The notes beneath the pieces are model-generated. The model saw only the letters and a list, made by a program, of their open reading frames with translations, made no database searches and was not told the DNA's origin. From Longimicrobiales bacterium (GTDB lineage: Bacteria > Gemmatimonadota > Gemmatimonadetes > Longimicrobiales > Gaopeijiaceae), in assembly GCA_041690395.1 (NCBI GenBank), contig JAWLHJ010000003.1, forward strand, positions 64,001 through 128,000: a DNA stretch of 64,000 nucleotides. Reading direction: 5' to 3'. Positions 5,389 to 59,769 of the stretch are shown piece by piece. How positions within the stretch are numbered: the stretch's first letter is position 1; every line of letters begins with the position of its first letter. The position numbers and the translations under genes were made by a program.

Positions 5389-7002
5389 TCAGCCGCCCCA
5401 GATCCGGGCGAACAGCGCGCCCGAAAGCTCGATCCGTGTGGCCGCTGGCGACCGCGCGCCCCCGATGGCGCGCAGGAGCCGCAGGCGGAACCGGAGCGGG
5501 CGGGTTTCGAGGCGCGGCGTGGTCGTGTCGTAGGTCAGGGCGCCGCCGACACGGTGCAGGGACGATCCCCGTCCGAGCGGCACCGGTGCAGCCCCATCGG
5601 TCGGCGTAAACGCAGGCGCGTCTTGCTGTAAGAAGCGATAGCTCGCGCTCAGGGTAAGCTCGGGAACGAGCTTGAGCCCGGGCTCGACCTCGAGGCCCAG
5701 GTAGCGCCCGGGGGACCACTCGAACACGGCTCGCCGGTCGACCGGGACCAGTGGTTCGTCCGCCACCCCGACTCGCATCGCGAGCAGCCGCGAGCCCTGC
5801 ATGCCGTACAGGGCGCCCGCGCGAAGCGAGAGGGTCCGGCCGGCGGTGCCGTGCGCGCTCGCGCGGACCTCGACGTCGGTCTGGCCGTCTCCCGTGCCGA
5901 GCGACAGCGGAACGTCCGGATCCGGCGCGCGACCCGTGCCGAGGCGCACCAAGACTCCGGCCAGGACGTCGACGCTCCAGGGTGGGATGTCGGCTCCCCG
6001 GTCGCCGAGCTGGAGCACACGAACGAGCGTGGACAGCTCGACATCGCCCAGGCCCCAGAGGCTCGTGCGGGTCCGCAGGGGCTCATCGTAGCCGAGGGGG
6101 GCGTACCGGGCCGGGAGCGTCTCGAGATCACTCTCGGACGGGCGCTCAGTGGCCAGCACGAGCGGCGCGTCGAGGCCGTCCAGACCAGCGGCCCGCAACT
6201 CCGCGTCGAGGGTCGCGACCTCCGAGGCGAGAACCGTGCCGGCCGGCGAGGCGTCGAGGAGGAAGAAAGGCGCCGCCGCGTACGCGGTCGTCAGGCCGCT
6301 GCTCATGCGAGCAGCGTTCTCCGCCAACGCCTGCGCGGAAGCGCAGCTCGGGTCGCCGGCCGCGCAAAGGTCGTCGGCACTGGCACTTGCGGTTGCCCGG
6401 GCGTCGGCGAGGTCGAGAAGGAAGGCGTCCACCGCACCGGGGTCGCTGATCCCCGGCGACACGCCCAGATCGCCGGCGAGGGTGTCGGGGGTGAACACGA
6501 GGTCGATCGCCGTCCGGTTCTTGATCCGAGGGATCATCGCGCCGATGGTCCACCAGTCGGTGATCCCGAGGTGGATGCCGAAGTCGATCCGCGTCACGTC
6601 GTGCGACACGCGCCCGTCCACGGCGCCTATGGCCGGAGTGTACTCCGGATCGCCGAGAAGCCCGCGCATCTCGGCCACGAAGTCGGAGCTCCCCCCAAAG
6701 AGATCCAGAGCCGACGGCGAGGAGAGGCCCGCCCCCAGCGGTACGCGCCCGTCATCAGCGAAGCGCTCCTCCCAGGCCGTGAACGAGGGCCATCCGGAAA
6801 GCCGCAGCGTTCCCGCCGGCACCAGCCGGTCGTCCAGGAGCTGGGCCCCCAAGCCAACCGGCGACACGCTCGTCGAGGCCCACAGGAGGCCGGCCAGGCC
6901 GATCGAGAACAGGAGAGCAGGGGAGCCCCTGCGCGAGCGACCGCTGCCCGGAAAGCGCGTGAGAGGCCGTGGGGTGGGCGCGTATGGCAGGGTATCAGGC
7001 AT
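5389..7002 (-). CDS. Hypothetical exported, probably outer-membrane beta-barrel-like protein
   Basis: Long ORF filling the space between recN and the tRNAs; hydrophobic signal-like segment (LLFSIGLAGLLWAS...LGAQ); alternating beta-strand patterns and aromatic C-terminus (ELSGALFARIWGG); start uncertain (ATG 7002 chosen). Confidence 0.6.
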   Translation of the reverse strand: MPDTLPYAPTPRPLTRFPGSGRSRRGSPALLFSIGLAGLLWASTSVSPVGLGAQLLDDRLVPAGTLRLSGWPSFTAWEERFADDGRVPLGAGLSSPSALDLFGGSSDFVAEMRGLLGDPEYTPAIGAVDGRVSHDVTRIDFGIHLGITDWWTIGAMIPRIKNRTAIDLVFTPDTLAGDLGVSPGISDPGAVDAFLLDLADARATASASADDLCAAGDPSCASAQALAENAARMSSGLTTAYAAAPFFLLDASPAGTVLASEVATLDAELRAAGLDGLDAPLVLATERPSESDLETLPARYAPLGYDEPLRTRTSLWGLGDVELSTLVRVLQLGDRGADIPPWSVDVLAGVLVRLGTGRAPDPDVPLSLGTGDGQTDVEVRASAHGTAGRTLSLRAGALYGMQGSRLLAMRVGVADEPLVPVDRRAVFEWSPGRYLGLEVEPGLKLVPELTLSASYRFLQQDAPAFTPTDGAAPVPLGRGSSLHRVGGALTYDTTTPRLETRPLRFRLRLLRAIGGARSPAATRIELSGALFARIWGG

Positions 7003-7125
7003 CGCAGAACATAAGGCGAGCGCCGCGAGCACGTACAGCCCGAACGCGCTGCCACCGGACCCCTTCGCACCCTCCCGAGATCGACCCGTCCGGGCCGGAA
7101 CGCCAACTCACGCCGAGAAGGGTCG

Positions 7126-7172: not shown

Positions 7173-7245
7173 GCGGGAATAGCTCAGTTGGTAGAGCACA
7201 ACCTTGCCAAGGTTGGGGTCGCCGGTTCGAGTCCGGTTTCCCGCT
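7173..7245 (+). tRNA. tRNA-Gly (GCC)
   Basis: Acceptor GCGGGAA/TTCCCGC, D arm AGCTCAGTTGGTAGAGC, anticodon arm CAACC-TTGCCAA-GGTTG, T loop GGTTCGAGTCC; CCA not encoded. Confidence 0.97.
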
Positions 7246-7251
7246 CTGTCG

Positions 7252-7294: not shown

Positions 7295-7365
7295 GGCGCC
7301 GTGGCCAAGTGGTAAGGCAGAGGACTGCAAATCCTTTATCCCCGGTTCGAATCCGGGCGGCGCCT
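7295..7365 (+). tRNA. tRNA-Cys (GCA)
   Basis: Acceptor GGCGCCG/CGGCGCC, D arm GCCAAGTGGTAAGGC, anticodon arm GAGGA-CTGCAAA-TCCTT, T arm CCCGG-TTCGAAT-CCGGG, discriminator T; CCA not encoded. Confidence 0.97.
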
Positions 7366-7830
7366 CTCAAAAGACTCGAAGAACGGTCAGGCTCCCAAGG
7401 GCCTGGCCGTTCTTTGTATCGAGAGGCTGCGAGCGCCGCCCGGATGGCGCGCTGTAGCGCGCCGCGCCGGCTTCACCGGCGCTCGAACCGCAGGTTCGAC
7501 CCTCGCGGCCAAGCGGGTTCTCGGTAGACCCGAGGGGCCTCCCCGCGTGGGGAGCGAGGATCGCCGCAGGCGACCGCAGCTCAATCCGGGCGGCGCCTCT
7601 CAAAAGACTCGAAGAACGGTCAGGCTCCCAAGGGCCTGGCCGTTCTTTGTATCGAGAGGCTGCGAGCGCCGCCCGGATGGCGCGCTGTAGCGCGCCGCGC
7701 CGGCTTCACCGGCGCTCGAACCGCAGGTTCGACCCTCGCGGCCAAGCGGGTTCTCGGTAGACCCGAGGGGCCTCCCCGCGTGGGGAGCGAGGATCGCCGC
7801 AGGCGACCGGAGTTCAATCCGGGCGGCGCC
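7350..7830 (+). repeat. tRNA-linked tandem repeat: two 233-bp units plus a third copy of the tRNA-Cys 3' end
   Basis: AATCCGGGCGGCGCC starts at 7350, 7583 and 7816 (period 233); units 7350-7582 and 7583-7815 appear identical except two bases near their ends (GCAGCTC vs GGAGTTC). Confidence 0.95.
7379..7419 (+). terminator. Intrinsic terminator-like hairpin after tRNA-Cys (repeated at 7612-7652)
   Basis: AAGAACGGTCAGGC...GCCTGGCCGTTCTT stem followed by TGTAT; U-tract is short. Confidence 0.55.
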
Positions 7831-7951
7831 GCGCTCCCAGGGGTGTCCGTTCTCTGGGATAGTCCGCAGGGCAGTGGGTGAGTCGCACAGCGACGAAGGG
7901 GAGGCGTACTACGGTTCCTCCGTCTGGCTCGCTTTCTCGCGTCCTCGCAAC

Positions 7952-7970
7952 TCGTTCGACTTTCGAACGA
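7952..7970. promoter_or_regulatory. Palindromic operator-like site, copy 1
   Basis: TCGTTCGA-CTT-TCGAACGA perfect 8-bp inverted repeat. Confidence 0.45.
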
Positions 7971-8060
7971 TCTCTTCGGTCACGCAGACGAACAGTTAGG
8001 CTTCAGAGGCCCCGTGTGACGAGGAGAATCATGCGAAGAGCACCTCAAGAGGTCGACTAC

Positions 8061-8085
8061 AAGTCGTTCGACTTTCGAACGACTT
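8061..8085. promoter_or_regulatory. Palindromic operator-like site, copy 2
   Basis: AAGTCGTTCGA-CTT-TCGAACGACTT with 11-bp arms; same 19-bp core as copy 1, 112 bp downstream. Confidence 0.45.
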
Positions 8086-8350
8086 TCGAACCTGTGGGAA
8101 AGAGACCGACGCGTAGGATTGGCCCTGTGCCGGACGCGCCAGACGGGCCCGCCCAAAGTCGTTGCTGAATCCGAGTCCTGCGCCTACGTTGGCCAAGTGT
8201 CGCCGAGTCCCGGTCAACGAGGCGCGCGAGCTGTGCAACTCTGGCCTCGGATCTCGTCATACCTGACAGAGCCGAGATTTGCGCCGAAAGCTCCCAGGAC
8301 CGCTCGGATCTTGTCGGCGCCGGAGTCGGAATTCACGGGGAGGTTGCGCC

Positions 8351-8779
8351 GTGCTGAGGAAGCGAGTCGCCGTTGTTCTGGCTGTCGCCGTGGTCGCCGG
8401 GTCCTGCATGGCCAGCTACCCAGCCGCCGACCCCTTCGCCGGTCCTCCGCCGGGGGCCGAGCGACCGGGCACCCCCATGTACCAGGTGTCCTTCGGGGGA
8501 AAGTGTGGCATCTGCAACGTGAGTCTGGATGTTGCGGGCCGGCGCGACGTGTACGTGGACACGACCCTGATCGTTCGTCGACACCGGATACCGGCGATGC
8601 CGGGGGCCGTCGTGGTCATGAATGTCGCACCGGTGGGCGATTGGGGTCCGGTCGAGCGCATCGAGATCCGAGTGAACGGAGAAGTCATCGCCGAGGCCAG
8701 CAACGGAGAGCTCGATGGCCTTCCGGGTACCGAAAACGGCGGGGCTCTGTCTATCCGCGCCGTTCTTCCGCAGAACTAG
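8351..8779 (+). CDS. Hypothetical exported protein / putative lipoprotein
   Basis: RBS GGGGAGG before GTG; basic N-terminus, hydrophobic stretch, then VAGSC; beta-rich body with CGIC. Confidence 0.6.
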   Translation: MLRKRVAVVLAVAVVAGSCMASYPAADPFAGPPPGAERPGTPMYQVSFGGKCGICNVSLDVAGRRDVYVDTTLIVRRHRIPAMPGAVVVMNVAPVGDWGPVERIEIRVNGEVIAEASNGELDGLPGTENGGALSIRAVLPQN

Positions 8780-58874: not shown

Positions 58875-59769
58875 CGCGGACAGGGCCTTCCGGACCGACA
58901 TGTTCCGGGAGTACATGGTCTTCGAGCGGGGGCTCTCCGAGCGAACGGTCGACGCCTACCTCGGCGACCTGCGGAAGCTTTTCACGCACCTCATGGCAGA
59001 GGGCGTGGAGCGCCCCGAAGCGGTTCGACCCGAGCACGTCCGCGGGTGGGTGGGCGGGCTGAGGAGCGGGGGCTTGGCGCCGGCCTCGGTACGACGCGCG
59101 CGGTCGTCGGCGCGGACTTACTTCGGGTTCCTGTTGGCCGAGGGGGTCATCGACACCGACCCGACGGAGCACCTGCAGGCGCCGAAGGTCGACCGGAAGC
59201 TTCCCGACTACCTCACGGTGGACGAAACGATGCGCTTGCTGGAGGCGCCGGATCCCGATCGTGAGCTCTACTGGCGCGACCGGGCGATGCTCGAGGTCCT
59301 CTATGCGACCGGTATGCGCGTGTCGGAGCTCACCGGGCTCACGCTCGGCCTCCTGGACCTGGACGAGGGCTTCGCCACGGTCTTCGGGAAGGGCTCCAAG
59401 GAGCGGCTCGTGCCCATTGGTGCCCCCGCCTTGAGGGCGCTACGGCGCTACCTGGGCGAGGTGCGTCCTCGTCTGGACCGCGGGTCGGGGAAGAGGATCG
59501 TGTTCCTGACCGCCAGAGGGCGTCCGATCCGGAGGGAGTCGGTGTGGCGTGTCGTCCGCGACGCCGCCCGTCGGGCGGGCCTCGAGCGGGATGTCTCCCC
59601 CCATACGCTCCGCCATACGTTCGCGACCCACCTCGTGGAGGGCGGCGCCGATCTGGCGGCCGTCCAGGAGCTCCTCGGACACGTGGACATCAGCACGACG
59701 GAGATCTACACGCATGTGGACCGCGCCTACCTGCGCGAGGTCCACAGGCGCTTCCACCCCCGGCGCTAA
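58867..59769 (+). CDS. xerD: Tyrosine recombinase XerD
   Basis: RDRAMLEVLYATGMRVSEL, GKGSKERLVP, SPHTLRHTFATHL, VQELLGH..ISTTEIYTH, FHPR. Confidence 0.93.
   Translation: MADADRAFRTDMFREYMVFERGLSERTVDAYLGDLRKLFTHLMAEGVERPEAVRPEHVRGWVGGLRSGGLAPASVRRARSSARTYFGFLLAEGVIDTDPTEHLQAPKVDRKLPDYLTVDETMRLLEAPDPDRELYWRDRAMLEVLYATGMRVSELTGLTLGLLDLDEGFATVFGKGSKERLVPIGAPALRALRRYLGEVRPRLDRGSGKRIVFLTARGRPIRRESVWRVVRDAARRAGLERDVSPHTLRHTFATHLVEGGADLAAVQELLGHVDISTTEIYTHVDRAYLREVHRRFHPRR

Follow-up and report, generated by a model that had tools for sequence, protein, structure and literature searches.

A tRNA-linked tandem repeat of the RtT type in Gemmatimonadota and its proposed origin in single-stranded DNA insertion

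RtT repeats and other small hairpin elements

The 178-bp repeats of the tyrT/tyrV region of E. coli K-12 (RtT RNA, rttR, RF00391) have been known for decades, and the same layout is now found in a distant phylum. RtT is treated as an RNA in the relevant parts of PMC4986893, PMC8250186, and bioRxiv 10.1101/2024.07.17.603846; in its passages on tyrT the last of these classes the repeats as a small RNA with a mode of action that it still describes as unknown, and reads a raised signal from the tyrT region in the E. coli mobilome as RNA/DNA hybrid and not as circles. Read as DNA, the left part of a K-12 repeat consists of the tRNA end from the T-loop point, a spacer or terminator, and a mirror arm that copies the repeat's own tRNA and contains a GA step, and the right part consists of a loop, GGTTCGA, and a core that starts with a tandem-GA helix and C(GNA)G hairpins, after which ATCC follows. 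The K-12 copies at the tyr, pro, lys, and ser loci share this layout with swapped ends, the arg copy is without the left part, one of the six loci remained unparsed, and the K-12 repeats form tandem arrays; RF00391 has 17 matches in K-12, 13 of them over the cut-off.

Mobile elements that use tRNA genes have also been described, and the sublocations at which tyrosine-integrase elements integrate in tRNA genes were reportedly treated by Williams in 2002. For the IS200/IS605 derivatives and the REP/REPIN sequences (TnpA, RAYT), end hairpins and a likely single-stranded substrate are given in the section of PMC6006769 that concerns them. The IS91 family, as portrayed in the corresponding part of PMC13181058, makes no target duplication, uses a tetranucleotide target such as GTTC, has imperfect subterminal palindromes, forms ssDNA circles, and shows variable one-ended run-off. 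Finally, the NTS/SRM repeats are small hairpin repeats that the Ssn GIY-YIG ssDNA nucleases act on as ssDNA, according to the portion of PMC11893778 devoted to them.

The tRNA-Cys locus and the core family

The locus considered here lies in a window of 64,000 nucleotides from a Longimicrobiales genome (G000; 69% GC, 7 long contigs), and its features are collected in Table 1. As the first-pass annotation of this DNA had claimed, the 15-mer AATCCGGGCGGCGCC from the tRNA-Cys end is repeated at 7350, 7583, and 7816 with a spacing of 233 nt, and the two 233-nt copies so delimited (7350-7582 and 7583-7815) differ at two positions (7577/7810 and 7580/7813), the differences lying 4 and 7 nt from the right junction of the core. 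The natural boundary of the unit is the T-loop point, which gives the units of the table. To the earlier description we add that each unit contains the tRNA end once more as a mirror copy, 13 nt long and without mismatch, and since the core stands between GGTTCGA and ATCC, the arrangement is exactly as if it had been pasted into a T-loop. The hairpins that had been listed as a chain are present, though the pairing CTCCCC/GGGGAG is not the conserved fold, which covariation assigns to helices A and B; in the window core, helix B has internal GA mismatches and a C-GCA-G triloop.

Table 1. Features of the tRNA-Cys locus, in window coordinates
Feature	Position	Strand	Remarks
tRNA-Gly(GCC)	7173..7246	+	upstream neighbour of tRNA-Cys, without element
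tRNA-Cys(GCA), intact	7295..7366	+	T-loop GGTTCGA^ATCC at 7344-7354; point 7350^7351 is a target-type site
Unit 1, 233 nt	7351..7583	+	tRNA end, terminator-like stem, mirror arm, two hairpins, fold-back T-arm half, core
Terminator-like stem with T-rich tail	7378..7415	+	copy at 7611-7648
Mirror copy of tRNA-Cys 3' end	7433..7445	-	copy at 7666-7678; pairs with the direct copy that follows or precedes it
Two hairpins (7446-7463 and 7464-7482)	7446..7482	+	split the mirror arm opposite the core insertion point; copy at 7679-7715
T-arm mirror half, GCA loop, direct half GGTTCGA	7483..7499	+	left junction of core; copy at 7716-7732
Core cassette, 84 nt	7500..7583	+	helix A 7500-7551, helix B 7552-7582
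Unit 2	7584..7816	+	anatomy as unit 1; core 7733-7816
Last direct copy of tRNA-Cys 3' end	7817..7830	+	begins at T-loop point

The nearest tyrosine-recombinase match is at window 59209-59721, in keeping with the earlier statement that no integrase is adjacent. Rfam searches of the window region and of 15 related loci returned tRNAs only, the coding potential of the units is limited to short overlapping frames, and a strict promoter and terminator scan of the locus made no call, the terminator-like stem included. The long frames that flank the tRNA pair (window 5389-7032, minus strand, and 8279-8779, plus strand) have no Pfam match. Window 7930-8095 is occupied by a different dispersed repeat, unrelated to the units and about 160 bp long, which is bounded on either side by TCGTTCGACTTTCGAACG-type motifs and includes a TTCGAA. 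G000 holds 13 other copies of it of at least 150 bp at 68-72% identity and 30 matches of its 18-mer, and the relative G002 has it at the corresponding place.

The unit folds far better than its shuffles, with z -8.6 as RNA and, for 7428-7598, z -5.6 as DNA, and when it is closed to a circle six arms are predicted to meet with one unpaired base (z -8.1 as DNA, -8.4 as RNA). Among 32 related units the median z is -3.5 and the energy minimum has at least five arms in just five, so the perfect star is a prediction for the window unit and not a rule of the family.

The E. coli tyrT repeats prove to be nearer relations in form than had been proposed, because the entire layout is common to both, with the K-12 parts in the same order as in the window unit. 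The window units stand behind a tRNA gene, end in the 3' end of that tRNA, and occur in tandem; they also have the mirror T-arm copy and the structured core between GGTTCGA and ATCC, a feature that was read from the E. coli DNA. When the core model was run on 78 kb of E. coli, the four best non-self hits were the tyr repeats, though these are weak (17-20 bits, E 0.016-0.067). The window family differs from RtT in helix B and in the extra double hairpin of the mirror arm, and clean insertions, antisense copies, and a non-tRNA target are seen in it but not in the descriptions of RtT, as far as the passages cited above extend. RF00391 has no hit in the window at E<=1 and none in G000, and with the layout of RtT but no match to its model the feature is an RtT-type tRNA-linked repeat and not a member of the Rfam family. 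It is a real feature, a Gemmatimonadota-specific variant of the RtT-type kind.

The first-pass annotation had also asked whether the hairpin core follows other tRNAs with swapped ends, and in G000 it does. Recurrent tRNA ends together with the core motif are present at nine loci (tRNA-Cys, Pro(CGG), Pro(GGG), Ser(GCT), Ser(GGA), Ser(TGA), Arg(CCG), Ile, and tmRNA), the ends matching the locus's own gene each time, and a covariance model finds 16 matches in this genome at E<=0.1, of which 15 are tRNA- or tmRNA-linked. The element accompanies 7 of the 12 tRNAs of G000 that have the TTCGAATC loop versus 2 of the 38 others (p 2e-4). Two further cores of G000 sit within partial tRNA-Pro copies, where they interrupt the anticodon arm at CCTGA^ATGG, a site that is occupied again in a second genome (L375), and one lies within a dead tRNA-Ser copy that is followed by the intact gene. 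A cluster of 17 tRNAs (G000 C1:919395-922679) contains Ser and Pro cassette arrays and is conserved in relatives. At the tmRNA locus (C3:462016-462206), and again at L017 in genome G006, two cores are fused directly head to tail, and these look as if the right junction of one core had recreated the target for the next.

The core model matches 83 of the 141 genomes of the family, leaving 58 without a match, complete ones among them; it also matches 13 of 70 genomes of a sister family, f4 (19 matches), and none of 59 genomes from ten other families of the phylum. Exact pattern matches fall nearly all in Gemmatimonadota, and mainly in Longimicrobiales. Some matches fall in bins labelled Actinomycetota or Planctomycetota, but they are clustered on one contig each and we do not count them as an occurrence in either phylum. 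On one contig labelled Solirubrobacterales, five cores and Longimicrobiales-like tRNA genes share 4 kb (L137/L369-L375; G436 C2, 8900-12400) near one end of 945 kb, and this is likely a chimeric join or mis-binning. Viral contigs gave no match to the strict pattern and four chance matches to a looser one, and plasmid and phage records gave short chance matches only, with no true copy in either. Rows L040, L085, and L138 were dropped as coding false positives, and L126 as ambiguous.

Arrays of two to four units, with 0-52 differences between units, are found in many genomes, and with arrays so common the tandem state is natural for the family; the G002 orthologue of the tRNA-Cys locus has a single unit. 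The arrays, together with the family and its swapped tRNA-derived ends, uphold the earlier proposal of a non-autonomous mini-element that amplifies in tandem at tRNA genes. Core structure persists at orthologous loci among relatives. The copied stretch begins precisely at ATCC and has a variable end point, with a local terminator often duplicated, and the mirror arm agrees with the tRNA of its own locus in 18 of 36 units versus 23 of 311 comparisons with other isotypes. Double hairpins related to 7446-7482 are present in the Cys and Pro units of relatives.

The suggestion that the fold should be checked for covariation was rewarded, in that 89.5% of cells pair across 51 cores, with 105 two-sided and 12 one-sided changes, few of them G-U, compared with at most 45.5% pairing in slid-alignment controls; six invariant pairs carry no information, as they were fixed by the search pattern. 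Triloops of the C(GNA)G type are stable in DNA, and this type accounts for 43 of 62 distinct terminal hairpins, with GNRA in one and UNCG in none. Judged from their sequence, the core loops are of the DNA type.

Insertion contexts and a proposed mechanism

An automatic sort of 157 distinct core contexts, which is rough and biased toward the pattern used, yielded 61 full downstream units, 31 contexts without a detected mirror arm, 20 of fragment type, 8 whole-gene, 25 other, and 12 that were cut off; target counts lean toward the expected site because the search pattern and the model include flanks. On inspection of the eight whole-gene calls, L116 and L227 were wrong and L234 and L239 were partial. 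Some cores are bare and have neither a flanking duplication nor a mirror arm. In the foreign tRNA array L197, three genes (one Asn and two Pro) each hold such a core at 58^59, and reading by eye showed bare cores in eight att-type tRNA fragments (L071, L090, L097, L104, L109, L119, L127, and L134). The L197 array (G358 C1, about 1036000-1037800) is dense and foreign-looking, with three different cores, and lies beside an IS481-like fragment. The core in the Pro anticodon arm of L375 is bare as well, and so is one that interrupts an IS91-like gene near its 3' end, at the T-loop look-alike TGATCGA^ATCC (L129; homologue L099). In f4, shorter relatives occupy the antisense strand of the T-arm, at GATTCGA^ACCC, in all 15 loci examined, and these cassettes have helix B in common with the core (E 3e-7 to 6e-4). 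The insertion site shared by both orientations is TTCGA^A within the TTCGAA palindrome.

In interrupted native tRNA copies the acceptor end is cut short and an intact gene follows (L130, L186, L239, and G000 C7), which argues against splicing and led us to reject a tRNA intron for them, although the three array genes of L197 look complete and might be spliced. No empty and filled pair from one strain population was seen. A separate hairpin of about 25 nt interrupts IS91-like transposase genes (L098:2226, 2512, and about 2620; L129:1633; L099:1632; L412:1357), with three insertions in the one gene of L098; it is absent from G000 and seems to be a second hairpin family that hits IS91-like DNA.

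On balance, we think it probable that the 84-nt double hairpin is a non-autonomous mobile ssDNA cassette that inserts at TTCGA^A, and that the 233-bp unit is the scar of a gene-rebuilding copying process, the core being, we infer, the mobile part of the unit. The site, the lack of target duplication, the use of both strands, the DNA-type loops, and the dead interrupted copies are the features behind this reading that are observed directly. The folded single-stranded cassette would be pasted into TTCGA^A of a tRNA T-loop, with no duplication of the target, by a nuclease supplied in trans, which would most likely be an HUH-type single-strand nuclease. Such an insertion would inactivate the tRNA gene, and the survivors would then be insertions into spare copies or cases in which the gene end was copied again. 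That re-copying may have run forward, backward, and forward, so that an intact tRNA gene was rebuilt ahead of the broken one; the mirror arm would let the unit fold to a branched junction, perhaps keeping the unit a substrate, and the direct repeats would then permit tandem growth through slippage or unequal exchange. Full-text searches of the literature gave no account of T-loop insertion by such cassettes, though older work on tRNA-linked repeats in E. coli may discuss mobility.

As for the enzyme, Pfam gave no Y1, Y2, IS110, or rve transposase in G000, yet this genome carries near-identical tandem units at two tRNA genes. The family shares a short target and the lack of target duplication with the IS200/IS605 derivatives and REP/REPIN, and differs from the Y1 HUH systems in that the Y1 gene is missing from G000 and from 134 of the 141 family genomes (of the seven that have it, five are among the 83 core-positive genomes and two among the 58 core-negative ones), in that the hairpins abut the junctions and leave no room for a guide tetranucleotide, and in that the core is nearly confined to tRNA loops. 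No GTAG, GTGG, or CGTC tag was found at the foot of either helix in the window unit. Unlike the NTS/SRM-Ssn pairing, the window unit has no NTS core motif, and no single-domain GIY-YIG was found in G000 or among the listed family matches (150 of 238), all of which are in frames of at least 375 aa. Neither IS110 nor rve co-occurs with the core (p 0.39 and p 0.85, respectively), and the idea of guide loops of the IS110 bridge type was rejected, as 43 loops fit their own tRNA no more closely than they fit other tRNAs (7.4 versus 7.3 of 10). No protein recurs among the neighbours of core loci.

The only one of four transposase families tested that does co-occur with the core is the IS91-like, with Y2 genes in 49 of 83 core-positive versus 13 of 58 core-negative genomes (odds ratio 5, p 1.6e-5, not corrected for kinship). 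IS91-like remnants also lie within 9 of 188 core loci versus 0 of 59 control loci, numbers too few to count. However, the core junction GTTCGA^ is 2 nt beyond GTTC, so that direct insertion at a tetranucleotide of the GTTC/CTTG type is not what is seen, and the local IS91-like elements are without the core and do not share its ends. No core was found at the ends of 30 IS91-like loci, Pfam found no IS91-like gene in G000, and the ends of the seven-copy IS91-like element of genome G015 are unrelated to the core, a comparison made where ends are definable, the fragmentary subgroups being unbounded. That element (L425-L431) is present as seven near-identical copies of 2.5 kb with sharp ends in one complete genome. 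An IS91-like Y2 protein as the inserting enzyme is a candidate that we regard as doubtful.

A broader version of the proposal is more tentative. RtT-type repeats from E. coli to Gemmatimonadota could have originated not as RNAs but as footprints of an undescribed ssDNA insertion system. Its enzyme, outside Y1, Ssn, and IS110, would paste two-hairpin cassettes into the TTCGAA of tRNA T-loops on either strand, the genes would be rebuilt by fold-back copying, and the resulting units would be closed six-way DNA junctions mobile as small circles.

Alternative readings of the units

The intermediate states found in relatives favour, as the probable reading, a DNA-level mobile origin of RtT-type repeats over an RNA role, which we consider unlikely, and over both integrase circles and a host DNA device, which we place lower still. 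The RNA reading regards the unit as chiefly an RtT-type structured small RNA that is cut from the tRNA precursor at the repeated end and retained for an RNA function, for example in stress-response modulation. The E. coli RtT has the same layout, the unit folds as well as RNA as it does as DNA, and the literature on RtT, in the parts concerned, records its release from tRNA-operon transcripts, Northern signals in Actinobacillus (both PMC4986893), and covariation around the tandem GA (PMC8250186). The DNA-type triloops and scarce G-U changes, however, point the other way, as do the antisense f4 cassettes and the finding of cores within defunct att fragments and a disrupted transposase gene; the terminator-like stem comes ahead of the mirror arm, and under part-way read-through the mirror arm is predicted to unfold the tRNA. 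RNA contigs of two RNA runs show tRNAs only and not the unit, which is weak evidence, as these runs are without this organism; among the sequencing runs screened, the best contained 0.28 of the locus words and four gave one 242-nt DNA piece of a relative. The first-pass suggestion that the locus is a source of processed small RNAs is not supported at this locus, where loops of the DNA type, relatives in both orientations, and a terminator-like stem placed first all weigh against it, but the RtT RNAs reported from E. coli and Actinobacillus leave it some probability.

Mobilisation by an integrase, which the same annotation had put forward, would have the unit as a mini-circle inserted through its shared tRNA 3' end by a tRNA-targeting tyrosine integrase supplied in trans, giving tandem arrays. 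The units do resemble integrative elements of tRNA genes in their duplicated tRNA 3' end and in the tandem occupation of one tRNA, with direct repeats of the tRNA end flanking each unit; moreover, G000 has six tyrosine-recombinase matches, neighbouring units can diverge strongly, as with successive integrations, and both window differences adjoin the junction. They differ from such elements in having no integrase or cargo and in having a mirror arm, and the core occurs also without an att duplication, on either strand, within an anticodon arm, and in one gene that does not encode a tRNA, none of which this reading explains. Identity begins in the middle of the T-loop, the unit carries a local terminator that is often duplicated to a variable end point, and integrases are not a recurrent neighbour of the element (2 of 105 neighbour frames scanned). 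We consider integrase circles improbable, and the claim of integrase mobilisation is not supported.

An equally improbable reading is that the cassettes are now host DNA devices, for example structures that load primosomes or restart replication where tRNA genes are heavily transcribed, or integration decoys. Conservation of the structure in 83 of 141 genomes and its persistence at orthologous loci would fit such a role, and in ColE1 the motifs CCGAGCG and GAGCGAGGA lie close together at about 1330-1360, a stretch that we take to be the primosome assembly site. A site of this kind downstream of the origin is described in the pertinent part of PMC3167613. Nevertheless, neither ColE1 nor phiX174 is matched by the core profile (best E 2.9 and 7.2), and the model has no hit there at E<=5; the fold of the ColE1 stretch is no stronger than that of its shuffles (z 0.7), and 58 of the 141 genomes, some of them complete, have no match. 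Finally, that the second unit is an assembly artefact of a single-unit locus is very improbable: the copies are 99% identical with no spanning reads and G002 carries one unit, but both differences are variants known in natural family members, diverged-unit arrays occur in near-complete genomes, and G000 is in 7 long contigs with other diverged tandem pairs.

Returning to the ssDNA cassette as the probable origin, the family displays the separate steps side by side, from bare insertions through disrupted copies of genes to genes that were rebuilt and to arrays, with either orientation represented. It points to an activity that inserts ssDNA in a sequence-specific manner and has the best-conserved loop of tRNA genes as its target, and with it the old puzzle of the tyrT repeats becomes directly testable in E. 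coli K-12.
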